DNA of 64,000 bases from Candidatus Omnitrophota bacterium (lineage in GTDB: Bacteria > Omnitrophota > Gorgyraeia > Zapsychrales > Fredricksoniimonadaceae), in NCBI GenBank assembly GCA_044225175.1, contig JBGAJA010000005.1:17869-81868 (forward strand), in the 5' to 3' direction. Positions 9,613 through 32,371 of the stretch are shown here, piece by piece. The position numbers and the translations under genes were made by a program. The notes beneath the pieces were generated by a model. The model made no database searches and had not been told where the DNA came from. It saw only the letters and a program-made list of their open reading frames with translations. The first letter of the stretch is position 1, and every line of letters starts with the position of its first letter.

Positions 9613-9636
9613 AAAAGGTGTCTGACACCTTTTTGA
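9613..9636. repeat. 24-bp palindromic element AAAAAGGTGTCTGACACCTTTTTG; a terminator-like hairpin in the convergent gap between the receiver gene and pntB
   Basis: Perfect inverted repeat flanked by A and T runs, so it can act as a bidirectional terminator. The same element recurs twice in-frame at 26831-26893. Confidence 0.65.
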
Positions 9637-9642
9637 CATGTT

Positions 9643-11330: not shown

Positions 11331-11381
11331 CCCCCTGTGGTTGCCCTTATAATTAAGGCAGGCACGGGGGCCTGCCCTACG
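11324..11381. repeat. Two adjacent GC-rich hairpins in the pntA-I / pntA-II intergenic junction
   Basis: Hairpin 1 'gggcaacc ccctgt ggttgccc' overlaps the pntA-II start codon. Hairpin 2 is 'ggcaggc acggg ggcctgcc'. GC-rich in an AT-rich genome. Confidence 0.4.
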
Positions 11382-12509
11382 TTATATTTTTTTCACCATC
11401 TCATTAACAACCGCACCCGCATGTGTAACCAACGCACCTTTAATAATGTCGTCTTCAACATTCAATTTGAAAGCCTTTGTATCTTTATCCCAGTATTCTT
11501 CAAGCAGGTTGTGAAGGTTAGCAGAATACATTTGAGATGCATTGACTGCAACTTTGCCTGGCAGATTACCTAAACCAATAATGCGAACACCATTTTCCGT
11601 GATGATTTCTTCGTTCGCTTTAGATCCTTCAACATTACCGCCAGATTCGACAGCCATATCAACAATAATACTTCCAGCTTTCATTTGAGCCACCATGGCT
11701 TTAGAAAGGACTACAGGGGCTTTGCGGCCGAAGAGTTGAGCGGTTGTAATGACGACATCAGACTGAGCACAAACTTTAGCCATGCCCTCTTGTTGTTTTT
11801 GGATTTGTTCGGGAGTTAAAGCTTTAGCATAACCTTGAGCGGTTTGTCCTGTTTCTCCAAGGTCAATTTCAACGAATTTGGCACCCAGAGATTGAACTTG
11901 TTCTTTGACAACAGGGCGGGTGTCAAAGGCTTCCACGCGAGCACCCAAACGTTTGGCGGTTGCAATAGCTTGAAGACCAGCAACCCCAGCGCCAATGATA
12001 AAAACGCGGGCTGGTTGAATGGTGCCAGCTGGAGTCATCATTAAAGGGAAGATTTTTTGTAAGCGTTCAGCAGCTAAGACGACCATAACATAACCGGCTA
12101 AGTTAGCTTGAGAACTTAAAGCATCCATTTTTTGTGCACGGGTTGTGCGAGGAATCATTTCCATGGAGATGGCACTGATGTTATTTTTAGCTAGTTCTTC
12201 AACGAGAGACTTCTCGTTAAATGGATCTAGAAAAGAGATGTGAAGGGAACCTTTTTTAAGCTGTGAGACTTCTTCTAAAGGGGGCTTACGTAAACGAAGG
12301 ATGATATCAGCATTCTTTAGGATATTGGATCTGGAATCTATGGTTGCTCCAACCTTTGTAAATTCACTATCTGGAGCACCGATAAAGGCTCCCAAACCAC
12401 TTTCAACAGCAACTTGGGCTCCTTTTTTAACCAAACGATCAACCGAAGAAGGTATAAAAGCGCAGCGTGTTTCGCCAGGGTGACTTTCTTTAAGAACTCC
12501 GATCATCAT
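11382..12509 (-). CDS. pntA: NAD(P) transhydrogenase alpha subunit part 1 (soluble NAD(H)-binding domain)
   Basis: 375 aa. Alanine dehydrogenase/PNT N- and C-domains. GAGVAGLQA Rossmann motif. Confidence 0.9.
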   Translation of the reverse strand: MMIGVLKESHPGETRCAFIPSSVDRLVKKGAQVAVESGLGAFIGAPDSEFTKVGATIDSRSNILKNADIILRLRKPPLEEVSQLKKGSLHISFLDPFNEKSLVEELAKNNISAISMEMIPRTTRAQKMDALSSQANLAGYVMVVLAAERLQKIFPLMMTPAGTIQPARVFIIGAGVAGLQAIATAKRLGARVEAFDTRPVVKEQVQSLGAKFVEIDLGETGQTAQGYAKALTPEQIQKQQEGMAKVCAQSDVVITTAQLFGRKAPVVLSKAMVAQMKAGSIIVDMAVESGGNVEGSKANEEIITENGVRIIGLGNLPGKVAVNASQMYSANLHNLLEEYWDKDTKAFKLNVEDDIIKGALVTHAGAVVNEMVKKI

Positions 12510-12649
12510 AAAATGTCCTCAAAAGGGATTAAATTGTGTTGGAAACTTTTCACATAATCTAACAAATTAACCCTCCAGTCAAGGATCAATTCAGAAAAAG
12601 CCTTCAGTTGGCTATATATATAAATATAGGGTATACTTTTTCCAATTCT

Positions 12650-18600: not shown

Positions 18601-21100
18601 TATTATTGATTATGGTTTGGCAATGATTGATGAGGATAGAGATTTTGGTTATGAGAATCTAAAATCTTTTGGATTAGATAGATGGGAAGGTAGATCTGAT
18701 TATGGGGGTGGAGGTCCTGATTGGTTTAAGCGGGACGTAAGAACTGTGTTGACAATTTTGGATGCCATGACGCCAAATTCTAAATTTGGAAATTTTTTTA
18801 TAAGCCAGTTTAATATTGAAACAGTGCTTAAGGATTTTGACAATAATCCCTTATCTATATCAGATGTATTGTCGAAAGTTCAGGATATAGAACGTCAATG
18901 GTATGAGCATTCCAATGCGGCCATGACTGCTAAATTGCCCGTTGGAGTCGTGCAGTATTGGAGAGACTTGCCAAAACCTTGGGAATCGACTCTTGAGCGT
19001 TATCCTAGTCATCATCAAACGTTAATGGACAGAATGGATGCAATCACTAAAAGGGTTCGTAAATTTGCACAAGGAAAGGCAATTACTCTGACTGAGATTT
19101 GTTGTGGAACAGGTAAGTTGTTTGCTTCTTTAGTTCAATTGCCCGGTGTCACAAAGGCTGTTGCTATTGATATTAATGCCAAGGCTTTAGATAGTTTGAA
19201 AGATCGATTGCATGGAATTGAATCAAAAACTTCCGATATTAGCGTTTTTGAAGGTGACATCAATGGTCCGCTGGCCAAAGACATTGTGCCAAACTCCGAT
19301 GTCATTGTGATTAACGATGCATTAATGCATATGCCTGATTTAGAAAAGGTGTTGGACTTGGTTGCTGAGCGTTTGTCGGAAGGTGGTTTATTCATGGGAA
19401 GTGGTATTTCGCGTGAAGGCTTATTTAAAGAAACTCCCATTTTGGGACCTCTTTGGTATGTAGGATATCGTTTTATTCTTCCTCAATTCGAAAGGGTTGG
19501 TTTAGGAGCGCTTGCTAACAGGGTCGTGCAGTGGGAATCGCTTCGTATCCGCCTTACAGCTCAAAGTCAAAGAGAGATTAAGGAGATGCTAGGAAAAAGA
19601 TTTGATATTGAAGAGATCACTGTAAAAGGACGTCACTATCAATTTACCGTCAGAAAAAAAGATGGAAAAATAGAAGATAGCGCTCAAATATCTGAGGAAT
19701 CTGTGAAGACCCCGGAAAATATGGTAAAGGTTCCTGTCACCCAAGAGGAGTTGGTTGGTTTTATCGGGGATATTCGAACTAAGATGCAAGCTATTTACGC
19801 GCGTAGTAATGATCCAACGAACAGTTCGTATTGGCATGTTTTTGATGAGATCGTAAATACATATAAAGAAGAAGTTAATGCGTCAGACAATCAATTGAAA
19901 ATGTTTGCTGATTTATATACTGAAACGAGTTTAATAGGGCCGCTCATTCCTCGTCCCAAAGAAGCCAAACATGTGCTTTTAGCTATGGCCATGTTTTTAA
20001 TGCTTGCCAATCATAGGAAGGAAAATGTATATACGAGCGAAGTATTCAATGAATTAAGAAATCTTATTGATGACTATAACAAACAATCCTTTGTAACTTT
20101 TCCTTTCAGTTTGTCCTCGCTATTTGTAATCGCACTAACGCCATACTTCCATGATCCAGACTTATTTGTTGAGTTATGGAATAAATTAGACCAACTTCCA
20201 GATGATATTAGTCCACAAGCAAAATTTTTATCTATGTTTTCGGTCTCTGCTCATTTAGGAGTAGTTCGTGTTGATGGAGACGATGATTTTAAGATAATTT
20301 ATCAAAAGATCGAGGGAATTTTGGCTGACAAATCACATCCCGATCAAATTCCAGACTCTTTAAAGAGAGTTCTATTAAACTCTATTGCTAAAGTTTTGCC
20401 TTCCATTTATCACCCTAATCATAAGGACGTTTATTCAGGCTTTCATCGTATGATTGGATGGTCATCTGGTTTTCGAGAGAAATTTTTAAATTTACTTACA
20501 AAGCATAAAGATTTGATCTGTGATATTTATTATGAATATTTTTCAAATTCTGATACTACGGATGATCCTATTCTGGCAGGGCTCGGCTTTAGTTTTTATT
20601 TAAAAGCAGAAAAAGAGTTATTGAGTAAAGTTTTGCGAGACAAAATACTTCAAATTACTGGATCACAACAATTACCACCGCTTAACGTATTAATTTCTGA
20701 TAGCCGTTTCCATGAAATATTAAAGGAAAGTCCTTTATACTCCAGATTAAAAGCTAATTTTTTTATTAAATATCTGCGACAATTTGTCGAGCTGAAAGAA
20801 GATAGTCCAACAGCTGTCGGTATTGAAGATCAACAATCAGTAAGCCCACAGCCTGGTTCCAGCCCAGCCATGGCGGTACGGACGGAAGCAAAGCAAGGGG
20901 GGGTTGATTTTACGGCAAATAAAACTCCTTTAGAGGTTCAAAATGTAGGAGGCGACATTCAATTTCATATTGATCTTGCCATGATGAAACAATTGCAAGC
21001 TGCTCCGGGGTTTTATCCTGTCATTATGAATATAACCCCGCTAAAAGATTTAAAGGTATTTTTAGACGTAGAGACGACCGGCCGGTCGTCTCTACAATAA
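12650..21100 (+). CDS. Giant secreted multidomain protein, paralog 1 of a 3-member family. Domains: conserved N-module, histidine-phosphatase-like, five tandem ~72-aa repeats, protein-kinase-like, SAM-methyltransferase
   Basis: Single ORF of about 2816 aa counted from the signal peptide MKFPFKKPLILWILFAFVVNTFGPLPASAQE. The ORF track start at 12608 is probably upstream of the real start. The N-terminal 340 aa are paralogous to 26159.. and 42980.. and the C-terminal 60 aa are paralogous to the C-termini of the other two. Motifs: LAERHGETFAN (RHGE...N) and LFGHGTQ; HAGIAFGDLTPDEIF...IIDYGLA; LTEICCGTGK...VIVINDALMH...GGLFMG. Confidence 0.8.
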   Translation: MKFPFKKPLILWILFAFVVNTFGPLPASAQEITLPKPGEMVHLSTAVNPPILKGLKVHPDNPFRFDFILDQGEQPDAISTKLKEDSTRLIKYFLASLTIPEVDLWVNLSPYEKDRIIPNSFGLTEMGRDLLAQDYMLKQITASLIYPEAEVGKRFWKRIYEEAAKRYGNTNIPVNTFNKVWIVPEKAVVYENAKAETAYVVESRLKVMLEEDYLSKAKNDLQSKANSPSLNASNLGSQIIREIVLPELIKEVNEGANFAQLRQVYSSLILATWYKKKIKDSILSQVYSDKNKVSGIDINDPAQKDKIYQQYIQAFKKGVYNYIKEEIDPATQQAIPRKYFSGGAKFGNLAMTTTNQFPQVIPAGLVAIQAEIKSSNPEGKTNAAMIAPLTAGEKFVSELDDKIILDGQGRIRYAAGHPTPIVKPLFTFLAERHGETFANLDERAQGVADENHLNESTPHGLDQGRDSAKGLFQRADIQEMIRKRIPIVVLTSGKKRTTQAAEPFIRRVEEAGGIIEYAPEELMKGASEINFGAVENKKLSHFSPEEIEILNQYRKQLSATAKFKGGESFLELLIKIKKWLEELNRLYAGRTVVLFGHGTQLKAVQTLLGDPLIVDPSGYINRNAYVIPNGKIIELHSPAMAAPAIKSTFDGSALKYSSDSIIQNAPEFERVDMFLDWYKANREKLPAKDGYREFLSASYTANVLMHAGKITIERLEEFQREAGAYEYGQESAVIQNAPEFDDVEKFLKWYDDKHEQLRSKDHPEEFLSRSYTFQVLRRWGKIKQKKFQSILRHIISYEYAQESIVIKHAPKFEDVEAYLKWYRTNREQLPFKDDPKKFLTAGSVVMALMHAGKIDKENFQDFQRHVGAYEYAQESEIILSAPEFNDVGYFLKWFRTNGEKLRSKENPEIFISASYAALCLMYARKIKREKLEHFQRQAGAYEYAQESAIIQSAPEFNEISEFIKWYRANRVLLRSKEHPEESLSGSYTAQVLMHAGKIPSERLTKFQLHVGAYQRAIDEEKIITAEMQRIWKESIHKELSGLPRIKAAFNPQLLLNKRISKGPSKPLGAEYRNLILTYAYEYYGEKEEASINPAMASNLGNVSVAERASYLVYRYLLLALYQLRGSGEYLDRRAIMDHLMKNSDYKREVFNPNSGWVDINFRKTGILGVGLIIKMPDEKKFKLTEAGIAFMERSYRLTGDAFILALKDQQKQYAQGSIDSKSGEDPVELVRYPKDFNILNKVKLKIAIADSVVQKTVDSKLQYVVNLEEVIEKYSEGLSPRYLIQAQQLSKLIEKQLVAFGFTKARDMGLDKSNLYSRDRSYNLDLIANPNIIRTQDEINFEPYRNFLLALHRLNSEEIKDSYSPQEVWKKIQVLSREMELQVVFSSVTAKQLKSAYESMAQRGVLLIERTEKGYRLSSEGLKFMQENGNLIKESLLKALKRHLYDIEQYELRREWLRLPQAGGTLNNAPTGDQVYKPKLLSEVEFRSIEEIFEASSHPEVGQWLTSQDIVAFEGHQIGKDRILKALKSPFRTSLESMGLANTVFYPVKVNQPMLIQKDFEQLISKRKDEGNFNILIYQIGLGEEGFLETRDIFNALKNAFHQAGISQEDQQKWKVTFIGVDVIKTIVDDFIQKFSVKTDFQSNILTIRADALVEDQMRWLGEKFKSDYLFFRNVAYGNYRASRGHLKSYINVVETLAIYLGTKNILKHLSVPETRFVIEPAQEFENTQNYVFHAPGTRIVTLKHYDPTKEFLDLNNVINTGTGIYKVLDPGAMDREGLQYFLDHVTEFEKPVADQAQKAPSLSSYSTLKLNDRSNLSMTLIGSNPGSRADYIKVGNRKDYKYGFTREELLQREAALMQVLSTDQRYNQIRKYLPVFKGLGRLDISDVRNVIPRLPRRSSIPDVPPRFFQEEDFLGSYMVTEDAGDPIYAIANEVREGKLTEDDLLKTMSLLVQSIYDFHHAGIAFGDLTPDEIFIAPSTEKVTIIDYGLAMIDEDRDFGYENLKSFGLDRWEGRSDYGGGGPDWFKRDVRTVLTILDAMTPNSKFGNFFISQFNIETVLKDFDNNPLSISDVLSKVQDIERQWYEHSNAAMTAKLPVGVVQYWRDLPKPWESTLERYPSHHQTLMDRMDAITKRVRKFAQGKAITLTEICCGTGKLFASLVQLPGVTKAVAIDINAKALDSLKDRLHGIESKTSDISVFEGDINGPLAKDIVPNSDVIVINDALMHMPDLEKVLDLVAERLSEGGLFMGSGISREGLFKETPILGPLWYVGYRFILPQFERVGLGALANRVVQWESLRIRLTAQSQREIKEMLGKRFDIEEITVKGRHYQFTVRKKDGKIEDSAQISEESVKTPENMVKVPVTQEELVGFIGDIRTKMQAIYARSNDPTNSSYWHVFDEIVNTYKEEVNASDNQLKMFADLYTETSLIGPLIPRPKEAKHVLLAMAMFLMLANHRKENVYTSEVFNELRNLIDDYNKQSFVTFPFSLSSLFVIALTPYFHDPDLFVELWNKLDQLPDDISPQAKFLSMFSVSAHLGVVRVDGDDDFKIIYQKIEGILADKSHPDQIPDSLKRVLLNSIAKVLPSIYHPNHKDVYSGFHRMIGWSSGFREKFLNLLTKHKDLICDIYYEYFSNSDTTDDPILAGLGFSFYLKAEKELLSKVLRDKILQITGSQQLPPLNVLISDSRFHEILKESPLYSRLKANFFIKYLRQFVELKEDSPTAVGIEDQQSVSPQPGSSPAMAVRTEAKQGGVDFTANKTPLEVQNVGGDIQFHIDLAMMKQLQAAPGFYPVIMNITPLKDLKVFLDVETTGRSSLQ
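14630..15710 (+). repeat. Five in-frame tandem coding repeats of about 213-219 bp (~72 aa) inside giant paralog 1
   Basis: Repeating unit SAPEF(N/D)DVExFLKWY(R/D)xNxExLRSKxxPEEFLSxSYTAxVLMHAGKIxxExLxxFQRxAGAYEYAQES. Unit starts are near 14637, 14848, 15066, 15290 and 15503. Confidence 0.75.
21068..21095. repeat. 28-bp GC-rich perfect palindrome GTAGAGACGACCGGCCGGTCGTCTCTAC, copy 1; it overlaps the last codons and stop of giant paralog 1
   Basis: Perfect inverted repeat. Identical copy at 25092-25119. It encodes ...VETTGRSSLQ* and likely acts as a terminator hairpin. Confidence 0.7.
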
Positions 21101-21144
21101 TTGATAATTGCATTTTATTCATTTTGTGATATCGTTTTAATCCT

Positions 21145-22254
21145 ATGAACCAAAATTTCTACGAAAACCTAGCTCACCAAAGTCTAAGCGGTCAAGAATT
21201 AGATGATGCTACATGTGAGCGAATCCTTAGTGACAATCAAATCGAATTACTTCCTTTAGTGAATGCCGCTTTTACTGTTCGCAAACATTATTGGCAGAAA
21301 CAAGTCATTATTCATATCATTAACAATGCTCAAAATGGGCATTGTCCTGAAGATTGTAAGTATTGTGCTCAAGCTAAAACGTCTAAGGCTGACATTGAAG
21401 AATATGGCCTTAAGTCTGATGAAGAAATGCTTCAGGAAGCACGTCAGGCATATGCTAAGGGGGCTTATCGTTATTGCATGGTGTATGCAGGACGAGGCGC
21501 TTCCGAGAAACGCATTGATCGATTGACTAATCTCATACGTCAGATCAAGTCTGAATTTCCTAACAATGAAATATGTGTATCCACAGGTTTGGTAAATGCT
21601 CCTGGTGCAGTTGAATTAAAGAAAGCTGGCCTTGATCGTTTGAACCATAATCTCAACTCATCCGAAAGTCATTATCCTAATATTTGCACAACACACACCT
21701 ATGCTGATCGATTAAGCACGTTATTAGCTGCACGGGCTGCCGGGATTAAGCTATGTTCTGGAATGATTGCAGGAATGGGGGAGCAAAATAAAGATATTAT
21801 TGAAGTTGCTAAACGATTACGCTCATTAAAATCTGAGTCAATTCCTGTCAATTTTCTAATTCCTATTGAAGGAACTGAAATGGCTCCTTCTGAAGCGCTG
21901 AATCCGGAATTTTGTCTAAGAATTCTATGTTTGTTTAGATTTTTAAATCCAGAAGCTGAACTTAGGGTAGGGGCTGGACGGGAAATGCATTTAAGAGGCT
22001 TAGAGGTTTTATCGTTATATCCTGCAAATTCTTTATTTCTACAGGGTTACTTAAATGCCAAAGGAAATTCAAACGGCAAAACTTTACGCATGATTAAAGA
22101 TGCGGGTTTTGATATAAAATCTGAAGAGAATTTAGCTGAATTGGTGGCTCATGAAAATGATGAAGTTTCAAAGGTTTCCGTGGATCCAGTTCAAGTTATG
22201 ATGAAAGATATTAAAGATTTACGTCCTGCCTTGCGGCAGGCAGGCCCGCTCTAA
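21145..22254 (+). CDS. bioB: Biotin synthase-like radical SAM enzyme
   Basis: 369 aa. GHCPEDCKYCAQA matches the BioB CxxxCxxC radical-SAM motif (GACPEDCKYCPQS). Somewhat longer than typical BioB. Confidence 0.6.
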   Translation: MNQNFYENLAHQSLSGQELDDATCERILSDNQIELLPLVNAAFTVRKHYWQKQVIIHIINNAQNGHCPEDCKYCAQAKTSKADIEEYGLKSDEEMLQEARQAYAKGAYRYCMVYAGRGASEKRIDRLTNLIRQIKSEFPNNEICVSTGLVNAPGAVELKKAGLDRLNHNLNSSESHYPNICTTHTYADRLSTLLAARAAGIKLCSGMIAGMGEQNKDIIEVAKRLRSLKSESIPVNFLIPIEGTEMAPSEALNPEFCLRILCLFRFLNPEAELRVGAGREMHLRGLEVLSLYPANSLFLQGYLNAKGNSNGKTLRMIKDAGFDIKSEENLAELVAHENDEVSKVSVDPVQVMMKDIKDLRPALRQAGPL

Positions 22255-22353
22255 AATCCTAAATTTCCATTGTCAAAACCCCTTGGTAAGTCTATAGTTA
22301 AATTCATCCGCTATTTTAACCATTTATAGTTCTAATTAAAAGAAGGACCGTAT

Positions 22354-24165
22354 ATGTCAGTAGAAAAAAGACCAGTAACAAGATTTGAGTTGTTGATGGA
22401 TGCCGGTTTTGGGGCACAAAAAGCCGGAGATATTCTCCTCAGTGCTTTTGTGGCTATGGGTAAGTATGTTTACGTAGAGCCCATGATTCCCGCTGAAATC
22501 TCGCCGCCAGCCAGAAGTAAAGCTGCTCTTTCTGGTATCATTATTCGTTTAGCTGATTTTGATGTTACTAACATTGGTAACGATACTGATTTAATTATTG
22601 CCTCCCACGAAGTTGTCCTCGATCGTCGTCTCGAAGATCGTGAATTCAATGCCAAATGCGTCATTTTATTAGATATGGGTGACCAAGAATCTAACCCGGA
22701 TTCTTATGAAATGGTCCTTAAAAAATGTACCCAAGAAGGTTTAAGTGTTATTCCTTTTCATACCGATGATGTTTCCAAGGAAGTGATTAAACAATTAGGC
22801 GGTAAAGGTCAAAACCTTTATTACCTTGGTATGCTTGCGTACATCTATGATATGGATGAAGAAATCGTCAAAGAAGAGATCCGTAAGACATTTGGAAAGA
22901 AATTAAAGCCTGAAATCATGGAAAAGAACTTAACTCTTTGCCATCAGGGGTATGAATTAGCTAAACAAAAAGTATTTTTTAGAATTAGTGTTGCCAGTGG
23001 TAAGCGTGAGGGAGAGAAGATCTTAATTGATGGTAACTCGGCTTTGAGTATGGGGGTTATTGATGCTGGATTTAAATTATTCTCTGGTTATCCCATTACA
23101 CCAGCCTCTTCTATTATGCATACATTAGCTAAAGAACTTCCTTCCTATGGTGGTATGGTTCATCAAGCTGAAGATGAAATTGCCGCCATTGGAACAGCGA
23201 TTGGTTCCTATTTCGGTGGAGTTCCTTCATTAACCTGTACTTCTGGTCCGGGACTTTCTTTGAAGCAAGAGTTTATCGGATATGCACAATCTGCAGAGAT
23301 TCCATTAGTTGTGATCGACGTCCAACGTTCAGGTCCTTCAACTGGTATGCCCACTAAAACAGAGCAATCGGATTTGCCATCTGTCATTTTTGGAAGCCAT
23401 GGGGATTACACAAAGATTGTCATTGGTGTCAGTAGTGTTATTGATTGCTTCTATGCTCCTCATATGGCTCGTTATTTGACAGAAAAGTTGCATGTGCCTG
23501 TCTTTATTATGAGCGATTTCCAAACAGCAAATAGTTATAAGGTTATTAATAAATTTAAAGTGATTCAAATGAATAAGGTCGATGAAATTCCAGATTTTAT
23601 TCTAGAACGTTTCCGCATGAAACGTTTGCCTGAAAAGATTGAAATGGTTAGAACTTTGCAGTCTATTCCAGGCGAAGAGGGTGGCATGCGACGGGTGACT
23701 GGATTAAATACGGATAAACAAGGTAAGGTCAGTTATTCGGCAACTTCCAATCAGCTTGCTCATCAAATCCGTAATGAAAAAGTCCATCACGTACAACGTG
23801 CTTTGACAAAACCCGAAATGTTTGGTGAAGAATCTGGTGATGTGTTGATCGTTGGATGGGGAAGTACACGTGGAGCGATTGAAGAAGCAGTATTTTTGTG
23901 TAAAAAAGAAGGGATGAAGGTTTCTGGAATGAATCTCCGTGTTGTTCATCCGCTGCCTTTAGTCTTAAATGAAGTTTTTGCTAATTTTAAAAAAGTTATG
24001 ACCGTTGAAGTGGCTTACGGTGATGAACTAAAACCATCCCCGTTAGCATTATTACTACGCGCTCAAACATTGGTTGATATTAAACCGCTTCTGTCGCAAG
24101 CAACAGGACGACCAGTTCGTCCTAGAATCATTATGAATACGCTCAAGGAGGTACTGTCCAAATGA
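22354..24165 (+). CDS. korA: 2-oxoacid:ferredoxin oxidoreductase alpha subunit (fused KorA type)
   Basis: 603 aa. Pyruvate/ferredoxin oxidoreductase domains with GYPITPAS... followed by a transketolase-like C-domain. Translationally coupled to the beta subunit. Confidence 0.8.
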   Translation: MSVEKRPVTRFELLMDAGFGAQKAGDILLSAFVAMGKYVYVEPMIPAEISPPARSKAALSGIIIRLADFDVTNIGNDTDLIIASHEVVLDRRLEDREFNAKCVILLDMGDQESNPDSYEMVLKKCTQEGLSVIPFHTDDVSKEVIKQLGGKGQNLYYLGMLAYIYDMDEEIVKEEIRKTFGKKLKPEIMEKNLTLCHQGYELAKQKVFFRISVASGKREGEKILIDGNSALSMGVIDAGFKLFSGYPITPASSIMHTLAKELPSYGGMVHQAEDEIAAIGTAIGSYFGGVPSLTCTSGPGLSLKQEFIGYAQSAEIPLVVIDVQRSGPSTGMPTKTEQSDLPSVIFGSHGDYTKIVIGVSSVIDCFYAPHMARYLTEKLHVPVFIMSDFQTANSYKVINKFKVIQMNKVDEIPDFILERFRMKRLPEKIEMVRTLQSIPGEEGGMRRVTGLNTDKQGKVSYSATSNQLAHQIRNEKVHHVQRALTKPEMFGEESGDVLIVGWGSTRGAIEEAVFLCKKEGMKVSGMNLRVVHPLPLVLNEVFANFKKVMTVEVAYGDELKPSPLALLLRAQTLVDIKPLLSQATGRPVRPRIIMNTLKEVLSK

Positions 24166-25082
24166 GTACAGAAACTATAGATCCTCAAGCTAAAGCACCA
24201 ATTACAATTAAGGATTTGCAAACTGAGAATCCACGCTGGTGTGCTGGGTGTGGAGATTTCGGTATTATTATGGGCCTCAAACGTTTCATTGTGGAACGTC
24301 AATTGCTGCCTGCCATGACTATGAATGTGTCAGGGATTGGCTGTTCAGGCCGGGCGCCTAATTATTTTAACACCTATGGTGTGCATTCCATCCATGGTCG
24401 TGCTGTCACTGTGGCACTTGGGTTAGCTCTTGCTCGTCCAGACTTAAACTTATTTGTTCATTCAGGAGACGGAGATTCATTAAGTATTGGTGGAAACCAT
24501 TTGATGCATGGGATCAATAAGAATTTTAAATGTGTCTACATGATGTATGACAATGAGCTTTATGCTTTAACTAAGAATCAAACATCCCCAACGACACGTA
24601 AGGACCATGTGACCAATACGCAGCCTCAGGGAAGTTTCTTGAGTCCTATGAATCCTTTAAGTATTGCAATTGGTCTGGGAGCTTCTTTTGTGGCATCTAC
24701 AGCAGATTGGATCCCAGATCATTTGACGAACACTTTAAAAACAGCGTTTGATCATCCAGGATTTGCTTTTGTGCATATCTCTCAGAGATGTCCACATTTC
24801 GATCCAAGTAATTTTGATCATAAGACGTCTACTTGGTTTTCATTCTTGAAGCATCAAAATGGAATTGAACCTGATCGTCGTTTAGCTGATAAAACAGAAA
24901 TCGTTGATCATGATCCTTCTGATCTTGGTAAGGCTTTCCAATTTGCTGCTGCTGAACGCCGTTATTTTGGTTTGTTCTATCAAGATAAAACTAAACCACG
25001 TTATGATGCTATTTTGCAGAATACAATTAAGAATGCAACGCCTAAGGACAGATCAAAAATCTTAGATAAATTTAACGTTTAA
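24162..25082 (+). CDS. korB: 2-oxoacid:ferredoxin oxidoreductase beta subunit (TPP-binding)
   Basis: 306 aa. WCAGCGDFGI and the GDGD TPP-binding motif. Confidence 0.85.
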   Translation: MSTETIDPQAKAPITIKDLQTENPRWCAGCGDFGIIMGLKRFIVERQLLPAMTMNVSGIGCSGRAPNYFNTYGVHSIHGRAVTVALGLALARPDLNLFVHSGDGDSLSIGGNHLMHGINKNFKCVYMMYDNELYALTKNQTSPTTRKDHVTNTQPQGSFLSPMNPLSIAIGLGASFVASTADWIPDHLTNTLKTAFDHPGFAFVHISQRCPHFDPSNFDHKTSTWFSFLKHQNGIEPDRRLADKTEIVDHDPSDLGKAFQFAAAERRYFGLFYQDKTKPRYDAILQNTIKNATPKDRSKILDKFNV

Positions 25083-25091
25083 TTTTTTAAT

Positions 25092-25119
25092 GTAGAGACG
25101 ACCGGCCGGTCGTCTCTAC
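25092..25119. repeat. 28-bp GC-rich perfect palindrome GTAGAGACGACCGGCCGGTCGTCTCTAC, copy 2; terminator-like, after korB
   Basis: Identical to 21068-21095. Preceded by an A/T-rich stretch. Confidence 0.7.
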
Positions 25120-25130
25120 AAATTTCCCCT

Positions 25131-26060
25131 ATGGAAAATGTCATTATTATTGGTTCCGGCCCAGCCGGCCACACAGCTGCGATTTATGCTGCTCGTGCCA
25201 ATCTAAAACCTTTGATGTTTGAAGGGCAGTTTGCCGGAGGAGTTGCAGCTGGTGGTCAATTAACCACAACGACCGAGGTTGAGAATTTCCCTGGATACTC
25301 GACGATCTCTGGACCTGAATTAATGGAAAAAATGCGTCAGCAGTCTATTCACTGTGGGACGCGCATTGTGACTGAGACGGTTGATAGGGTTGATTTATCC
25401 AAGAAACCATTTAAAGTTATTGCAGCTGGCATCACATATGAAGGTAAATCTTTGATTATTACAACCGGAGCAACAGCCAAGCGAATGGAACTTCCCGGTG
25501 AAGATCGTTTATGGCAAAAGGGAATATCTGCTTGTGCTGTCTGCGATGGCGCTTTGCCTTTTTTTCGTAATAAAGTTTTAGCTGTTGTTGGTGGAGGCGA
25601 CTCTGCTGTTGAAGAAGCAGGTTATTTGACGAAATATGCGTCTAAGGTTGTCATGTTGGTTCGCCGCGATGTGCTTCGTGCTTCTCAAGTCATGCAGCAT
25701 CGTGCCAAGCATAATCCTAAAATTGAAATTATGTATCACACAATTCCTATAGAAGTCTTAGGAGAGAAATCTGTGACAGGCTTAATGATCAAAAATGTTT
25801 CTACTCAAGTTGAATCCACGATAGATGTTGGTGGTCTATTTTATGCAATAGGTCATACTCCTAACACGGCCTTTTTAAATGGCCAGATAGAATTAGACGA
25901 TTCTGGTTATATCAAAACGAAACCAGGAACTACACAAACAAGTGTGGATGGTGTTTTTGCCGCAGGTGATGTTCAAGATAAAATTTATCGCCAGGCCATT
26001 ACTTCTGCTGGAACTGGCTGTATGGCTGCCTTAGATGCGGAACGCTTTTTGAGCCATTAA
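25131..26060 (+). CDS. trxB: Thioredoxin-disulfide reductase
   Basis: 309 aa. IIGSGPAGHTAAIYAAR FAD motif, CAVCDG redox-active disulfide, GGGDSA NADPH motif. Confidence 0.9.
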   Translation: MENVIIIGSGPAGHTAAIYAARANLKPLMFEGQFAGGVAAGGQLTTTTEVENFPGYSTISGPELMEKMRQQSIHCGTRIVTETVDRVDLSKKPFKVIAAGITYEGKSLIITTGATAKRMELPGEDRLWQKGISACAVCDGALPFFRNKVLAVVGGGDSAVEEAGYLTKYASKVVMLVRRDVLRASQVMQHRAKHNPKIEIMYHTIPIEVLGEKSVTGLMIKNVSTQVESTIDVGGLFYAIGHTPNTAFLNGQIELDDSGYIKTKPGTTQTSVDGVFAAGDVQDKIYRQAITSAGTGCMAALDAERFLSH

Positions 26061-26158
26061 TTCTAATTTTTCCAAATAAAACGTTTTCTCAAATCCCCTT
26101 TTTAGGGCTTGTAAGTGACTTTATATATGGCATATTTATATAAAGGTAAGATACACCT

Positions 26159-29100
26159 ATGCGAAGACTAATAGTCGCTCTAATCTTGGTTTGCTTTATT
26201 ATAAGCTCTTTGATTCCTATGCCTGCCAATGCCCAGGAATTTGCTTTGCCTGTCCCTGGGACGATGATTCATCTAAGTTCCCAATACACTCCAGCCCATT
26301 TAGCTGGCCTTGTGATCCACCCCGAAGATCCATTCAAATTTGATTTTTTAATTCATCGTGGCGATCAATTCGTAGGGGATGGGCTTGCCCCATCCCAAGA
26401 AGGGCGAATGCAAGATTCGCCCCTACAAGATAAACAGGTGGTCTATTCAAAATTAATTAAATACTTCCTAGCTTCACTAACCGTCCCCGATGAAGACCAA
26501 TGGGTAAATTTATCTCCCTATGAGAAGGAGCGTATCATTAATGAGAATTTTGGTAAAACAGAGATGGGGCGAGATCTGTTGGCCCAGGACTATCTATTGA
26601 AACAGATCACCGCATCCATGATTTATCCCCAAGACAAGTTAGGAGAGAAGTTTTGGGAGAAGGTGTACAGGCAAGCATGGGAGAAGTACAAGACAACCAA
26701 TATCCCAGTAAATACGTTTAATAAAGTATGGATAGTTCCCGATGAAGCAGCCGTGTACGAATCAGGGAATACAGTGTATGTGTTAAAGAACCATTTAAAA
26801 GTCATGTTAGAAGAAGATTACCTAGCCAAGAAAAAGGTGTCTGACACCTTTTTGGATGGAGCAGGTGTTAAAAAGGTGTCAGACACCTTTTTGACAAGCC
26901 AGGTGATGCGGCAGATCATTTTGCCGGAGTTGGAGCGTGAAGTTAATGAAGGGAAGAACTTTGCAAATCTTAGGCAGATCTATAGTGGGATGATCTTAGC
27001 TACATGGTACAAACGAAGCCTTAAGGAATCCATTCTTTCTAAAGCCTATGCCAATAAATCGAAGGTCAAGGGGGTCAATCAGGTTGATACCAAGGCCAAT
27101 GAGGATATATATCAGCAATATTTGAAATCCTTTAAGAAGGGAGTATTTAACTACATCAAAGAGGATGTGGATAAGTATTCGAAACAGGCTATTCCTAGGA
27201 AGTATTTTTCAGGTGGAATGACCCATGGGTTAGAGAAAGTGAATGTTTATAGTTCAGATAAAGCCATGCCGGCTGAATATCGTCCTGATGCCGCGACGCT
27301 ATCAGGCCTTGATATAGCTCAGGTATTACTAAGAACGGATAGGGAAATAACAGATATAAGAAATGATGCTAGTAGAAGAATAGACATCAATTTGTCTGAA
27401 TTTATTTATAAATTCTTGTTAACTAAGTCAGGAATATACAGATTATTTAAAGGAAATCCCCCTATTCAAATGTCTAGATCATGGAACATCAAAAGAGAAA
27501 AGAAGAGTGAAGATCAAGAATTGCCAGACCGTAGTTATTATGAGCAATTGAATGATGAAAATGATGCTAAATCTTTTGATGAATTGATGGCGCAGCTATT
27601 GCCTCAAGTCCTAAATAATAAGATTCCAGGCATTCTTTATAAGCCCAATCAAGCAGGAAATGGGCGAGGAATATTCTTTATTGAGAGAAATTCAGAGGGT
27701 GGTTTAACAGTAACAATGCTTTCAAGACCAAAAAGACAAGGAGAGTTGTCTCCAGAGGAACTTACTCAGATTCTTAGTCCTGGTATAGAAGTCCGAACAA
27801 GTTTAGAAGAAGAAATCATGCAGTTTGATCTTCCAAAGACTATGGGTGAGAATCGTCACAGAGAGATTTTAAAGAATTTGTGGAGTTATTTATCGACAAG
27901 AGAAGGAGCTTATGATTCTGGCATCATTCAAGTGATGGAGTCTTTTGTAAAGGTTTCCAACCCGCAGGAACACAAGCGTCGTGCCTTTGATACTAGGTTT
28001 GTATTTCATGGAAATTTATCTTCTGGACGTATTAAATTTATTTCTAATGAATCAATTGGAAGGGTAGGTTCTTCGTCATACTTTTCTAATTTGGGTGGTA
28101 GTCCCAATCTTTCAGATCATCCTTATGGATTTAAAGGGGAATCAAGGCCGTATTGGTATAATAGCCAGGATATGTTTAAGCCTGTATTTGATGCTTTTCC
28201 AGAGTTGTTTGATTCTTTTAAGAATGCAAAGGCTTCTGAGGAGAAAAGAAAATTTATTGCTGACACCTACAAAAGACTTGAGGAACAATTTAGATACTTA
28301 ACCGAACGATTAAAATCCACTGGAGCTAATTTAGATTTAATGGTGGATGGACAATTTGACTTAATGTGGAAGAAACCCTTTAAAGTCGGGGATTTTCCTG
28401 AGCCGATTTTGGTTGAATCATGGATCAATCTATTAGATCCAGGAAAAGATTTGTCTGGAATTAAGTTTCAATTAGAAGCGGATAAAGATCATGCTATGGT
28501 GATTGCTGTTGGTCAAAAAGAGAAGTTTATACTTCCTCATGGGGTATCGTGGATCAAAATAGGAGAAGTTCCTATTGAAGTCACTTGCAGAGCTAGTGAG
28601 ATTTATTTGAATGCCTATAGGATTGGCTGGCATGGCCCTATTTTAAAAGATGGTTCAATCGATTTGAATGATTTAACTAATACACAAGTGCCTATTGTGG
28701 TTAATAGGTTGCCAGGTAATACCAATATATTAATTATAGAAAATAAATCGTACGAACCTTTAGGAGTTATTCCAAATTATTCAGAAGAATCATTAGGAGT
28801 TAAAAGGCATGGATTGGCTTTGTTTAAGGATCAATCATCTATTTTGTTGTTTAAGAAAGGGCGAGAACAAGATTTTATAATCATGGGGGATTACTTTAAA
28901 GTCAAATTCTCTCAAGAGGGCATTTATTTCTCATCGATGGCATTTGGAATCGAAGATGATTTTATAAAACAAGGAGAGTCGAAGGATTATGACTTGAGAA
29001 ATGGGACAGCTTTTACACTTGAAGTTTCATCTCATGATCCTCGCCGCATCATTATTAGAAATAAACGTACCATCCCATTATATATTTCCAATATTCCGGG

Positions 29101-32100
29101 TATTGAAGATATGTCTCATATTAAAGGTAAAAATATTTTCACATTTCAAAGAACAGAACAACGGAAGCCAATTAAGATCAATGGAGTTCCTTTTACCATA
29201 GAACGTACGGGTGATTCTTTTTTTGTAAGATCCCCATTCTATGAGGGATTCTTATCGATGCGTCAGCAAGAGTCTTTAGATGTTCGTATTCCAGATCAGC
29301 CTCAAATTAATCAAAAAGCTTTTCAGATTAGATTTTTGATTCCAAGCGGTGGGTATGACTTTGTTATTCTGAATCTGACAGAAGAATCTTTGATTATTGA
29401 GGAAGATCAAACTTCAGCTATTTGGATAGGGGATCGAAAACCTTCTCCTTTATGGAAAGATTTAGAGGAAACTTTAATTGAAGTGGAAGGCCAAAGTAAA
29501 AATGAAGTTAATAAAGCAGTGAGGCTGTTGAAAGAAAAGCCTATAACAGTGTGGAAGATAGGCGTCTATGAGGGTAGATGGACTCAAGATATTGCAAGAA
29601 GAAATGAGAATATAGGACTAATTGTAACTGAGAATTTTTCTGCACAAACTAATTCCAGGCCTGGAGACTCATTGGATGATTGGAGGCGAGGATCTTTGGA
29701 TGTTCAAATACAGCAACCTGATAATTTAGCTGTCCTTAATGGTTCAGTTCGCAGTATCCTTAGTAATATGCCGGATAATTCTTTAGATACTATTATTTTT
29801 GAGAATACTGAAGCACGCAGTTTTTCTGAAGGCCAGGAAGTAGTTGTTTTAGATGGGAGAGATAAGCAAAGAACGTGGACTTTTCTAAGTAGGAATATTT
29901 CTCTCGTGTTGAGAAAATTAAAGCCTGGTGGAAAATTGATTATTGCGCCGTACCATTTATCTAATACTTATCAAATAGCAAATAATGAATTCTACAAAAC
30001 TTGGCAGAAAAGTGAGACTCCAGGAATAGATTTCACGACAAGAAAATCATATTGGGCTTATTCTAAGGACATTGCAGTTCTGATTAAAGACAGTGCAATG
30101 AAAGCGGATCACAAGGAAGATATTATTTCAGTTGAACAGTTCAGAAAAATTATGAGCAGGGCTATTTTAAGAGCAGACCCTAATATTTTTGAATTTAAAG
30201 ATAGAACGGCATCTTTTTTTAATGCTTTTTTAAATGCATTATTAGAGCATGACATTAAGAAGGGAAGATCAGCTTCAGAGGTAATGATGGCTATATCGCA
30301 AATCATTGATTTGTTGCAGCCAGAGAACTTTACTAAACATACATTTACCAATCCTGAAGCATATGTGCGTGAATGGGTGGAGGATTATGCTCCTTATTTT
30401 AAAGAGGATAAAACTTTTGAGAAATCAGCTATTGTGGCCCTTAAGTATTTATTGAAAAATCCAGAACATCAAAGTACAGAAGCTGATGATGAGGGATTTG
30501 AAGATACGGTGGACCCAGACCAAAATGTTTCTTTCAATGATCAAGGAGCTAAATTGCTTAAAATGGCTTTTAATGCTTTGCAGTTATATGTAAAGGCTAA
30601 GGCCAAGATGAAAGCTATTTTACAAAGATTCCCAAAAATTGAATCGATGGAATTGTATCCGAATCATACCTCAACAATTTTTCTGGATAAAAAGTACCCA
30701 CAGGCACAAATCTTTTATTTAAATGGGATGGAAGCTTCTGTACAACGAGATGATCAGGGAGATGTTTTTTTATCGATTCCTGAAATTGAGATTCAATCTA
30801 AAGAAATTGAACAAGGAGGATTTGTTTCTTACGATATAAGAGGAGTCAGTGTTGGGATCCAATTATCAGATTATACAGATCGTGTGGTTATTAAGAACTT
30901 GAACCCAATGGTACCCATGGTTCTAGCCATCGAGAATTTACCAGCCATTGTTGAAAGTTCTTCTATATTTAATGAAGAGCAAAATTCTTTGAATGACTCT
31001 TTTTTTCTTCCCTGGCGTGAGAGAGCCACACTTTCTTTTTTCGGAAATGAAAATACTGAGAAAGAATTTCAGTTAAATGGAAGGGTTTTTAAGGTCCTTT
31101 TCTTATCTAAAGGTAGTATTTTATTACAGCATGGCAGCTCAAATGAATTTATTCCCTCGAAAAGTTCCAAGATAATTTCTCTGCCTGCAGATGAAAAGAG
31201 TAATAATTCTCTTAATGTCAGCATATCATCTCCTCAAGGACAGTTAAAATTGACAATTGTGAATCTAAGTGAGCAATCCTTAAAAATTGAAAATAAATTT
31301 AATCGCTTAGCGGACGTGGCGCGAGATTCTGAGAAGATCGTTATTAGTACAATTGAGCAAGTAGAAGAAATTGCCAAATCTTATGTGCAAGATACTCGTT
31401 TAGGAGAACAAATGGTTAAGGACACGAATTTGGGGGAAGATGATTTGATTGTAGTTTTGACATTTATTCTTCTTGATAAATATTTAAATGAGAAAAATAT
31501 AGATTTAAATATTGAAGATCCCCAGCAATTAACTCGGGAAGTCAAGAAGCGCGCCAAGAATATTAAATGGCGAGAGTACCTCGTTAAGAAATTTAATCTT
31601 AAGCAGAGAGGTCAAAGAAATAATAGGGGTAGTAGCAGGAATGAAATTATAAATCCTTCTTATGAAACTTCAGATTCTCTAAATACCTCAGGGCAGATTA
31701 CACATGGTGAGTTTTATGCGCGATTACAGATGTTAAAAGAGGGGTTAAGAGCATTAATAGATTCTTGGGAAACACGACAGGAATACTCGGACACTTTTAG
31801 AGAAGAAAGTACTATAAAGTTCTTACTTACCACGGAAAATTTTCTTAGAGTTATTCAAACTTTAGATAATGATCGTGTCAATATTGAGAATTTAAGTCTT
31901 GAGTTTGGTTTTGAATCAGCTGGCTTTATAAATAATCTTAAGAAGTCTATTGAATCCAATGCCATACAATCGGAAGTAAGTTACATTATCAATACGATTG
32001 CTCTGATTTTAGGAATGGATAAGAAAAATCCTAATTATTTTTATACGATGACAGGGGATGAAGATGATAAATCCCTTAAAGAACTTACAATTTATAAACA

Positions 32101-32371
32101 TGCTAAGCAGATTTCTAGAATTAATGGGAGTGGAAGTCATGATGCGGCTATGGTTGCGTTGAATAAAGGAGGTATTGATTTTAATTCGTCCAATTTAAAT
32201 CTTCAAATCAAACGTGATGGCAAGGGTGTGCCATTGCCTTTTGCCCAGCAAGATATGGCCCAAATCAATAATATTGAGGGCTTTGTGCCAGTGATTCTAG
32301 AGATCAAACCTGCCGGTAACTTGCCTTTTTTTTCCGAACTTCAGGCGCAGAATAAGTTTGCGACTAGATAG
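26159..32371 (+). CDS. Giant secreted multidomain protein, paralog 2. Conserved N- and C-modules with a central region containing a TTL/ATP-grasp-like motif and a possible methyltransferase-like motif
   Basis: 2070 aa. Signal peptide MRRLIVALILVCFIISSLIPMPANAQE. N-module about 60% identical to paralogs 1 and 3. KPNQAGNGRGIFFIE resembles the tubulin-tyrosine-ligase/ATP-grasp P-loop. LKPGGKLIIAPY resembles MTase motif III. The C-terminal GGIDFNSSNLNLQIKRDGKGVPLP... is shared with paralog 3. Confidence 0.8.
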   Translation: MRRLIVALILVCFIISSLIPMPANAQEFALPVPGTMIHLSSQYTPAHLAGLVIHPEDPFKFDFLIHRGDQFVGDGLAPSQEGRMQDSPLQDKQVVYSKLIKYFLASLTVPDEDQWVNLSPYEKERIINENFGKTEMGRDLLAQDYLLKQITASMIYPQDKLGEKFWEKVYRQAWEKYKTTNIPVNTFNKVWIVPDEAAVYESGNTVYVLKNHLKVMLEEDYLAKKKVSDTFLDGAGVKKVSDTFLTSQVMRQIILPELEREVNEGKNFANLRQIYSGMILATWYKRSLKESILSKAYANKSKVKGVNQVDTKANEDIYQQYLKSFKKGVFNYIKEDVDKYSKQAIPRKYFSGGMTHGLEKVNVYSSDKAMPAEYRPDAATLSGLDIAQVLLRTDREITDIRNDASRRIDINLSEFIYKFLLTKSGIYRLFKGNPPIQMSRSWNIKREKKSEDQELPDRSYYEQLNDENDAKSFDELMAQLLPQVLNNKIPGILYKPNQAGNGRGIFFIERNSEGGLTVTMLSRPKRQGELSPEELTQILSPGIEVRTSLEEEIMQFDLPKTMGENRHREILKNLWSYLSTREGAYDSGIIQVMESFVKVSNPQEHKRRAFDTRFVFHGNLSSGRIKFISNESIGRVGSSSYFSNLGGSPNLSDHPYGFKGESRPYWYNSQDMFKPVFDAFPELFDSFKNAKASEEKRKFIADTYKRLEEQFRYLTERLKSTGANLDLMVDGQFDLMWKKPFKVGDFPEPILVESWINLLDPGKDLSGIKFQLEADKDHAMVIAVGQKEKFILPHGVSWIKIGEVPIEVTCRASEIYLNAYRIGWHGPILKDGSIDLNDLTNTQVPIVVNRLPGNTNILIIENKSYEPLGVIPNYSEESLGVKRHGLALFKDQSSILLFKKGREQDFIIMGDYFKVKFSQEGIYFSSMAFGIEDDFIKQGESKDYDLRNGTAFTLEVSSHDPRRIIIRNKRTIPLYISNIPGIEDMSHIKGKNIFTFQRTEQRKPIKINGVPFTIERTGDSFFVRSPFYEGFLSMRQQESLDVRIPDQPQINQKAFQIRFLIPSGGYDFVILNLTEESLIIEEDQTSAIWIGDRKPSPLWKDLEETLIEVEGQSKNEVNKAVRLLKEKPITVWKIGVYEGRWTQDIARRNENIGLIVTENFSAQTNSRPGDSLDDWRRGSLDVQIQQPDNLAVLNGSVRSILSNMPDNSLDTIIFENTEARSFSEGQEVVVLDGRDKQRTWTFLSRNISLVLRKLKPGGKLIIAPYHLSNTYQIANNEFYKTWQKSETPGIDFTTRKSYWAYSKDIAVLIKDSAMKADHKEDIISVEQFRKIMSRAILRADPNIFEFKDRTASFFNAFLNALLEHDIKKGRSASEVMMAISQIIDLLQPENFTKHTFTNPEAYVREWVEDYAPYFKEDKTFEKSAIVALKYLLKNPEHQSTEADDEGFEDTVDPDQNVSFNDQGAKLLKMAFNALQLYVKAKAKMKAILQRFPKIESMELYPNHTSTIFLDKKYPQAQIFYLNGMEASVQRDDQGDVFLSIPEIEIQSKEIEQGGFVSYDIRGVSVGIQLSDYTDRVVIKNLNPMVPMVLAIENLPAIVESSSIFNEEQNSLNDSFFLPWRERATLSFFGNENTEKEFQLNGRVFKVLFLSKGSILLQHGSSNEFIPSKSSKIISLPADEKSNNSLNVSISSPQGQLKLTIVNLSEQSLKIENKFNRLADVARDSEKIVISTIEQVEEIAKSYVQDTRLGEQMVKDTNLGEDDLIVVLTFILLDKYLNEKNIDLNIEDPQQLTREVKKRAKNIKWREYLVKKFNLKQRGQRNNRGSSRNEIINPSYETSDSLNTSGQITHGEFYARLQMLKEGLRALIDSWETRQEYSDTFREESTIKFLLTTENFLRVIQTLDNDRVNIENLSLEFGFESAGFINNLKKSIESNAIQSEVSYIINTIALILGMDKKNPNYFYTMTGDEDDKSLKELTIYKHAKQISRINGSGSHDAAMVALNKGGIDFNSSNLNLQIKRDGKGVPLPFAQQDMAQINNIEGFVPVILEIKPAGNLPFFSELQAQNKFATR
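26831..26893 (+). repeat. Two tandem in-frame copies of the 24-bp palindromic element (AAAAAGGTGTCTGACACCTTTTTG / ...GTCAGAC...) inside giant paralog 2, encoding the duplicated peptide KKVSDTFL
   Basis: Copies at 26831-26854 and 26870-26893, separated by 15 bp. Identical to the intergenic hairpin at 9613-9636. They sit in a linker that is hypervariable among the three paralogs. Confidence 0.75.

Follow-up and report, generated by a model that had tools for sequence, protein, structure and literature searches.

A 64,000-nucleotide stretch of a Candidatus Omnitrophota genome (hereafter the window, meaning the whole stretch, in whose numbering its coordinates are given) carries three copies of a short palindrome, one between two convergent genes and two within the reading frame of a giant gene. 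The exact 24-mer AAAAAGGTGTCTGACACCTTTTTG is found at 9612-9635 and 26831-26854, and a third copy at 26870-26893 departs from it by a single difference, T to A at the unpaired central base, which corresponds to the reverse-complement orientation of the same palindrome. The initial annotation had given the intergenic sequence correctly but one base off, at 9613-9636, and had described the genic copies as two tandem repeats; these are indeed in frame and encode a duplicated KKVSDTFL peptide, but the second is inverted and not identical to the first. Written as the 23-mer AAAAAGGTGTCWGACACCTTTTT, the element occupies the one intergenic site and the two in-frame sites (26831-26853 and 26870-26892). 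Searching the window with up to three mismatches returned these three sites (six when both strands are counted) against 0.00 expected from 100 dinucleotide shuffles, and the 13-nt core GGTGTCWGACACC, with at most one mismatch, was found nowhere else in the window. No 11-nt half-site relics beyond chance were detected in the two paralogs of the giant gene (see below) or in the rest of the window.

The intergenic copy (CAAAAAGGTGTC T GACACCTTTTTG, centred on T and assigned to no strand) lies 13 nt past the stop codon of a response-regulator receiver gene (open reading frame, ORF, 9221-9598, plus strand; Pfam Response_reg was detected on the identical gene in locus L104) and is separated by 7 nt from the stop codon of pntB, encoding the beta subunit of NAD(P) transhydrogenase (9643-11022, minus strand; PF02233 PNTB). 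An inverted-repeat scan described it as two 12-nt arms, 100% complementary, with 1 nt between them. The exact PntB protein was recovered from the Logan assembly of run SRR28480388, and this independent assembly (L104) contains the identical pntB together with the same intergenic palindrome. At the RNA level the copy forms a hairpin within a fold of -16 kcal/mol, with a z score of only -1.8, and among the terminator-like sites of the plus strand it ranks first in the region scanned (8001-28000). Bidirectional intrinsic terminators share with it the symmetry, the succession of A-tract, G+C-containing stem and T-tract, and the location between convergent genes; it differs from them by a G+C stem of only 5-6 bp, by a T-run of five that belongs to the stem, and by being a dispersed rather than a locus-specific sequence. 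The intergenic copy probably serves as a 3' hairpin, either a terminator or a stabiliser of mRNA ends, and the bidirectional terminator envisaged in the initial annotation is a plausible role for it.

The host of the two genic copies is a plus-strand ORF of 2070 amino acids (aa) at 26159-32371, hereafter paralog 2. The first copy (26831-26853, plus strand, 23 bp, centre T) encodes KKVSDTF(L); a 16-nt spacer (GGATGGAGCAGGTGTT, 26854-26869) supplies the third base of the leucine codon and then DGAGV; and the second copy (26870-26892, centre A), in inverted orientation, extends as a palindrome to TGTTAAAAAGGTGTC A GACACCTTTTTGACA (15-nt arms, 93%). The ORF thus reads KKVSDTFL-DGAGV-KKVSDTFL across the pair, with a period of 39 nt, or 13 codons. 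A CAGGTG hexamer occurs 3' of both copies at nearly equal distance, a spacing that would also be consistent with the tandem duplication of a local 39-nt unit and a subsequent substitution at its centre. Paralog 2 opens with a conserved N-terminal domain of about 350 aa, provided with a signal peptide and common to three paralogs of the window. This domain has 1611 homologues, the named ones belonging to Candidatus Omnitrophica/Omnitrophota, and matched neither Pfam families nor PDB folds. The pair is located in a linker of the domain, between VMLEEDY and PELxKEVNEG, that is hypervariable across the family and ranges from 24 to 77 aa. The homologous linkers of paralog 1 (12608-21100) and paralog 3 (42980-46795) hold other sequences and no copy. 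In an AlphaFold2 model with a mean predicted local distance difference test score (pLDDT) of 73, confidence dips at residues 221-240 (63/56) versus 78-94 in the flanking blocks, so that the linker loop is, as modelled, structurally permissive; a second dip at residues 71-90 (52/54) coincides with another in-frame hairpin insert described below.

Comparison of related giant genes, which the initial annotation had proposed as a check, indicated that the element comes and goes. At the identical linker site, KKVSDTFL occurs in two proteins of another genome, once in P0043 and twice in P0046, the P0046 doublet having the same 13-residue period as paralog 2 but KGRVD instead of DGAGV as spacer. The closest relative of P0046 is paralog 1 (71%), which is devoid of the element, and the closest relatives of paralog 2 (P0030, P0026 and P0005) are devoid of it as well; orthologues thus differ in whether, and how many times, they carry it. 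Of the 65 homologues examined, the majority are free of the element at the linker site, and the linkers of several unrelated members display repeat-like peptide words (QPGDM..., VIPA.AGIQ, ...AKDL and KAPQG). A short-query protein search with the KKVSDTFL-bearing linkers returned four short fragments, none with the element, the word index being probably limiting. When metagenomes were scanned for copies of the element suitably spaced from the E-[VI]-N codons of the giant-gene family, the matches listed comprised a single unrelated, high-GC locus (L103) and no further family genes.

These data also bear on a scenario in which a single original insertion was followed by the spread of the linker among giant genes through gene conversion or homologous recombination. 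Paralog 2, P0043 and P0046 have the element at one and the same position relative to the conserved xSQ(I/V)(I/V)R helix, paralog 2 and P0046 have the 13-codon period in common, a second rare insert (GDGLA.SQEGRMQDSPL) is shared by paralog 2 and P0043, and the pair replaces the native linker, all of which would fit such a history. The spacer peptides are nonetheless unlike, and the three carriers belong to separate subclades, every one of them having closer relatives that are free of the element. We regard this scenario as quite improbable; moreover, it concerns only the arrival of the element at the linker and leaves its identity unchanged.

Folding predictions, another check proposed at the outset, revealed that the two genic copies pair into one long hairpin (RNA fold of -46.7 kcal/mol, z = -8.7), which as RNA could give a 24-bp duplex. 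With inverted copies (centres T and A), a 16-nt spacer and a single long hairpin, the pair corresponds to the definition of a REPIN, a hairpin-forming doublet of repetitive extragenic palindromic (REP) sequences, with the caveat that each unit is itself palindromic and that the central base alone marks its direction. Such a structure could also be read as a selected site in mRNA or DNA (a target of the RNase III type, a pause, attenuation or recombination site) that would control how the giant gene is expressed or processed and for which a REP would have been co-opted. The perfection of both copies and the strength of their joint fold agree with this alternative, as do the common period of the P0046 doublet in another genome and the identity of KKVSDTFL in all five genic copies amid a hypervariable linker. 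It is contradicted by the lack of the element in paralogs 1 and 3 and in most homologues, by the unrelated palindromes that occupy the linker in other genomes, and by a location in the middle of a conserved N-terminal domain, where termination or cleavage would only destroy the product. Rfam searches of 26500-27200 likewise speak against it, having yielded nothing but sub-threshold noise: microRNA-precursor models scored far below their gathering thresholds, as expected of a generic long hairpin, and were rejected. A selected site is, on balance, unlikely, and the suggestion in the initial annotation of a regulatory hairpin or recombination site placed purposely inside the gene found no specific support.

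Far from being restricted to the three sites of the window, the element is widely distributed, and the condition that the initial annotation had set against a mobile element, uniqueness of the three sites together with absence from other genomes, clearly does not hold. The exact 23-mer was searched for in one genome per species (GTDB representatives, 596 Gb), so that the following locus and genome counts are lower bounds. It was detected in at least 100 loci of at least 50 species genomes from many phyla, for a chance expectation that we estimate at about 0.07 for a word of 22 specified bases in 596 Gb. Carriers included Planctomycetota (Pirellulaceae, Phycisphaerae and one single-cell genome), Bacillota (Syntrophomonadaceae, UBA911 and Anaerovoracaceae), Gamma-, Beta- and Alphaproteobacteria (among them Steroidobacteraceae, Woeseiaceae and Kiloniellales), Nitrospirota (Nitrospirales), Bdellovibrionales, Parcubacteria, Saccharibacteria and the isolate Collinsella massiliensis. 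Among the first 100 loci, up to 17 came from a single genome (UBA911), followed by nine in a Kiloniellales metagenome-assembled genome and seven in the Syntrophomonadaceae genome SLHT. About 80% of these copies lie outside long stop-free frames, compared with one extragenic and two genic copies in the window. Twelve close doublets occurred among the matches listed, with spacers of 2-134 nt and mostly 27-51 nt, the 16 nt of the window pair being shorter than most; their central bases were A,T in seven cases, A,A in four and T,T in one, while the genic pair of the window has T,A.

Around 118 oriented copies, no conserved target or flanking motif was apparent, including no conserved tetranucleotide. 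The flanks lengthen the palindrome by at least 4 bp in 24% of these copies, in a lineage-specific manner, as exemplified by AATAAGTT-core-AACTTATT in Syntrophomonadaceae. Variant words (AAAAGGTGGCTGCCACCTTTTT, AAAAAGGCGTCAGCC, AAAAGGGGGACAG and AAAAAAGGGGC) were observed beside the exact 23-mer in five loci (L082, L083, L054, L019 and L074), and one high-GC intergenic region, at 9190-9310 of L103 (Joint Genome Institute metagenome contig Ga0079224_100011898), contains three full or near-full copies together with half-copies, 5-14 nt apart. Viral contigs gave no match to the 23-mer and thus no sign of a phage origin. Neither the 13-nt core nor KKVSDTF was found in the searchable literature.

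This distribution is difficult to reconcile with coincidence or artefact, that is, with the chance duplication of a local terminator or a misassembly at a repeat. Such a view can point to the presence of only three copies in the window and to the absence of the exact 2070-aa protein from the index of assemblies. Yet no match was expected by chance and the 23-mer recurs in at least 50 other genomes; the reading frame and the conserved flanks are intact; the same peptide occupies the same site in the proteins of another genome; and the intergenic copy was confirmed in an independent assembly. This explanation, extremely improbable, is effectively refuted by the wide distribution, the same-site peptides and the independent assembly.

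The nature of the element emerged from its neighbours. When the ORFs of 100 loci, fetched solely because they held the 23-mer, were clustered, one cross-phylum cluster corresponded to a Y1 transposase of the HUH type, with a Y1_Tnp ORF in 7-8 of the 100 loci. Its members matched Pfam PF01797 (Y1_Tnp) above the cutoff (E = 1e-11 to 1e-15) and NCBIfam NF047646 (REP_Tyr_transpos) with 55.1, 75.6 and 80.7 bits, one of the three reaching the 80-bit cutoff, and their sole relative in the PDB was E. coli TnpAREP (4ER8, E = 1.6e-7). The HuH (N-H-x-H) and R-Y-x-x-x-N(P) residues are invariant in the alignments. These element-flanked genes of other genomes hence combine the Y1_Tnp fold, the HuH motif and the Y...NP motif of REP-associated tyrosine transposases (RAYT, or TnpAREP).

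The palindrome bounds the transposase gene in six loci from Planctomycetota, Bacillota, Nitrospirota and Alphaproteobacteria, at distances of about 10-110 nt, and on both sides in four of them. Copies at 7083-7105 and 7900-7922 (the latter with three mismatches) enclose the gene at 7117-7878 in a Pirellulaceae genome (L005), those at 2234-2256 and 2985-3007 the gene at 2262-2981 in a Nitrospiraceae genome (L024), and those at 1915 (three mismatches) and 2733 (two mismatches) the gene at 1990-2712 in a Kiloniellales genome (L056). In Syntrophomonadaceae (L015), the gene on the minus strand at 4624-5541 has its upstream copy at 4595-4617 and its downstream copy at 5516-5538. For the planctomycetotal single-cell genome (L014; upstream copy 2928-2950, gene 2978-3655), no downstream copy was found, and in UBA911 (L031) the upstream copy at 7401-7423 precedes a gene running from 7512 to the end of the locus. 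This layout corresponds to the canonical REP-RAYT arrangement.

For independent verification, RAYT homologues were collected by protein similarity alone (more than 7500 matches) and their flanks were then read. In Allorhodopirellula solitaria, two copies of AAAAAGGTACCGGACACCTTTTC follow the gene and two of its complement precede it; the homologue of another genome is flanked by AAAATGGTGTCAGGTACCTTT, and a betaproteobacterial one by AAAAAAAAGGTGGCAGGAACCTTTTT. These related but non-identical repeats indicate that the whole clade goes with hairpins of the form A-tract-GGT...ACC-T-tract, of which the window sequence is one widely shared version. The transposases of the clade are 222-283 aa long and display the motifs NH[WYF]H, YQ/WQ, Y[VIL][EH]xNP and WPWSS. 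For RAYT subclass 2.1, the reported motifs are NH[YF]H or NHVH, W[EQ]/FQ, Y[IV]ELNP or Y[IV]HLNP and an 'SS' tail, with a median length of 238 aa (Table 1 in PMC6006769). Based on motifs alone, the clade would fit best with subclass 2.1 (Quentin et al. 2018), equivalent to Group 1 of Bertels and to TIRYT (Di Nocera et al. 2013).

The element shares with REP/REPIN-RAYT systems, as described in the literature (Nunvar 2010; Bertels & Rainey 2011; Ton-Hoang 2012; PMC3116915, PMC5581495, PMC6006769), the general format of a palindromic repeat of 23-24 bp, present in many copies per genome elsewhere and mostly extragenic near the 3' ends of genes, with frequent inverted doublets that can fold into one hairpin and with copies flanking a single Y1/HUH gene (Y...NP). 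As a perfect palindrome of 23-24 bp with a predicted hairpin, it falls within the 20-40 bp size and the stem-loop structure expected of a REP. Unlike typical REPs, it is a perfect palindrome with A5/T5 arms and a single unpaired centre, and its 23-mer core is shared across many phyla, in contrast to the lineage-specific classical REPs. For subclass 2.1/Group 1, no REP has been reported (PMC6006769), and the flanks were described as weakly repeated (PMC5581495). TIRYT genes are flanked by self-complementary, moderately repeated sequences (Di Nocera, De Gregorio & Rocco 2013, PMC3733652), and the element resembles these 'TIRtrons' in several points: RAYT-like genes stand between inverted repeats without GTAG, some self-complementary, which also occur as dimers or clusters, and the half-site GGTGTCAG agrees with the GGGGWSAS motif at seven of eight positions. 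The differences are that the present sequence is not among the repeats reported and that TIRYT repeats were said to coexist with their gene in a limited number of genomes only, with no core common to dozens of species (PMC3733652). The same GGGGWSAS motif of TIRYT-flanking repeats is matched by the GGGGACAG words among the variants that accompany the exact 23-mer. Taken together, these comparisons support a more exact designation of the window element as a GTAG-less, perfectly palindromic REP of a RAYT/TIRYT clade. A CRISPR-like array, a DNA uptake sequence, a parS-like site and a sequencing adapter were also considered and set aside given the RAYT adjacency and the origin of the carriers from many unrelated projects, including an isolate (Collinsella) and a single-cell genome.

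Insertion of such repeats into genes has precedents. Among previously described intragenic REPs, more than half are dimers that encode 20-30 aa; uvrA is repeatedly targeted, the same recB site is occupied in two Xanthomonas species, and so-called Conv-REPs lie less than 20 bp from both stops of convergent ORFs (PMC3733652). The copies reported here are similar in being in-frame palindromes within intact genes, often dimers and sometimes at the same site of orthologues. They differ in that the earlier ones carry GTAG or CGTC, whereas here the host is an uncharacterised family of giant Omnitrophota proteins whose linker has been struck by several different repeat families. Rickettsia palindromic elements (Ogata et al. 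2000, as summarised in PMC3733652) are 100-150 bp long, in frame and confined to Rickettsia; the element of the window, with 24 bp (63 bp for the pair) and an Omnitrophota host, behaves alike but belongs to a different family.

About one-fifth of the copies of the 23-mer fall in long stop-free frames, and many of these are artefacts of high-GC sequences or gene ends, but some are certain. Three of them, all from Planctomycetota, are a 23-mer in frame between the CN_hydrolase and NAD_synthase domains of NadE (L030, ~1346), another inside the Aminotran_1_2 domain of a class I/II aminotransferase (L066, ~3962), and a KKVSDTF copy at the C-terminal end of a UvrA ORF (L037, ~4568). All genic copies examined closely, namely these three, the window pair and those of P0043 and P0046, are read in the KKVSDTF frame, which is identical in both orientations because the core is palindromic. 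One of the remaining frames would give KRC[LQ]TPF and the other KGV, a stop or Arg, and HLF, and the uniform use of KKVSDTF fits a selection filter acting on random insertions.

Other palindromic repeats were noticed in the window and in related loci. A second perfect palindrome family of 28 bp (GTAGAGACGACCGG|CCGGTCGTCTCTAC), GTAG-tagged like classical REPs, has exact copies at 21068-21095 and 25092-25119, for none expected; the former supplies the last ten or so codons of paralog 1 (ORF end at 21100) and the latter lies in the 48 nt that separate ORFs 24162-25082 and 25131-26060. Paralog 2 contains a further in-frame insert at 26372-26426, composed of GTAG and an 8-bp hairpin, 5 nt, and a second 8-bp hairpin followed by CTAC, which encodes VGDGLAPSQEGRMQDSPLQ; its DNA folds with -17.8 kcal/mol (z = -4.5) and the model confidence there is below 55. 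Paralogs 1 and 3 do not have this insert, which has no other copy in the window, and its peptide recurs at the equivalent position of P0043, P0053 having a variant of it. A perfect 18-bp inverted repeat with a 4-nt loop (AAAAAATGACGGACACTT / AAGTGTCCGTCATTTTTT, 5037-5076), situated between ORFs 2219-4603 and 5159-6415, is terminator-like, with A- and T-runs at its outer ends.

A related Omnitrophota locus, syntenic with the window in having pntAB upstream (L101), holds five copies of TGTCATTCCGGCGAAAGCCGGAATC in 22 kb. This repeat resembles the dRS3 repeat of Neisseria (ATTCCC-N8-GGGAAT). Three of its copies are intergenic (5474, 9673 and 16273) and two are in frame in the family gene (10808 and 11108), one in the same linker and the other in a second loop, with VIPAKAGIQ as peptide. 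Partial tandem copies of 21 nt stand before the copy in the linker, and an 18-mer nearly identical to TGTCATTCCGGCGAAAGCCGGAATC appears in a paper on Neisseria gonorrhoeae (PMC7593972). The second variable loop, located before the conserved IYQQYL, displays GVGSKPTQDRAGLEPAPT in P0046 (residues ~300-320) and VIPAKAGIQ in P0039, and these repeat-like peptides imply that more than one loop of the domain has been colonised.

Based on this evidence, the 24-mer is likely to be a mobile palindrome of the REP/REPIN type, of which an inverted pair is tolerated in frame within a hypervariable loop. The earlier suggestion of a mobile REP-like element, or miniature inverted-repeat transposable element, is thereby strengthened by the presence of the 23-mer in at least 50 genomes, the RAYT adjacency, the in-frame copies in unrelated genes and the other palindromes of the linker. 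From what is established of IS200/IS605 and RAYT enzymes, dispersal would proceed through single-stranded hairpin DNA. The self-complementary core A5-GGTGTC-W-GACACC-T5 would form a hairpin as single-stranded DNA or RNA, and wherever a source is visible, the repeat flanks a single-copy HUH/Y1 gene of the RAYT/TIRYT type, nearest to subclass 2.1/Group 1. Judging from the literature on such enzymes, this Y1 transposase would cut and rejoin the hairpin, dispersing the flanking repeats in trans. The intergenic copy, a few bases past two convergent stops, occupies the usual place of a REP, and a REPIN-like inverted pair lies in a hypervariable surface loop in the N-terminal domain of a giant secreted protein. 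Its tolerance there may be explained by an inserted length that preserves the reading frame, by a hydrophilic, stop-free KKVSDTF peptide on either strand, by the structural permissiveness of the loop, and by translation through the region, which would keep the hairpin melted. The loop seems to have been struck repeatedly in related genes, by this and by other palindromic repeat families, and the genic copies would need no assumed function.

Several observations weigh against this interpretation. The window element has neither a GTAG nor a CGTC tag, its core starting with AAAAAGG, and so departs from the tag that defines classical REPs; only three copies were found in 64 kb; no RAYT gene was found in the window; and none of the at least 50 carrier genomes was labelled Omnitrophota among the matches listed. 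The linker of paralog 2, at 34 aa, is hardly longer than the 29-31 aa of its closest relatives, so that the pair must have replaced the native linker and was not simply added to it; this suggests recombination or a subsequent deletion in addition to insertion. A 13-codon period characterises both known genic doublets, in paralog 2 and P0046, but no intergenic doublet, and this common period hints at an origin by gene conversion or at a further constraint. Finally, the genic copies have both remained perfect, as selection on the hairpin would explain equally well.

Intragenic REP dimers and the self-complementary repeats of TIRYT genes have already been described. Insertion of a REP/REPIN in a permissive loop accounts for an odd feature of a giant gene by a known process, and peptides such as KKVSDTF and VIPAKAGIQ should not be taken for protein motifs by gene callers or readers. 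One REP core can be common, base for base, to genomes of many phyla, and the 23-mer offers a concrete, synthesisable candidate substrate for a widespread RAYT/TIRYT branch with poorly defined DNA targets. Specialists may find most interest in the conservation of this core across phyla, in its link with a RAYT group said to lack REPs, and in the repeated colonisation of one loop. A broader proposal, which we put forward tentatively and regard as doubtful, combines two statements: that A5-GGTGTC-W-GACACC-T5 is the cognate hairpin of a large, cross-phylum branch of subclass 2.1/Group 1, the most widespread RAYT group, and that the linker is a recurrent landing pad where REP-type palindromes of several families are time and again inserted, duplicated and exchanged. 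If true, the near-invariant core would be the mark of a conserved code by which the protein recognises its hairpin, in contrast to the REPs known so far, which evolve fast and are lineage-specific. The loop of an uncharacterised but very common N-terminal domain of Omnitrophota (more than 1600 homologues) stands out as a hot spot of repeat-driven variation, and selfish hairpin DNA would, under the same proposal, be the chief origin of the variation seen in an exposed loop of secreted Omnitrophota proteins.

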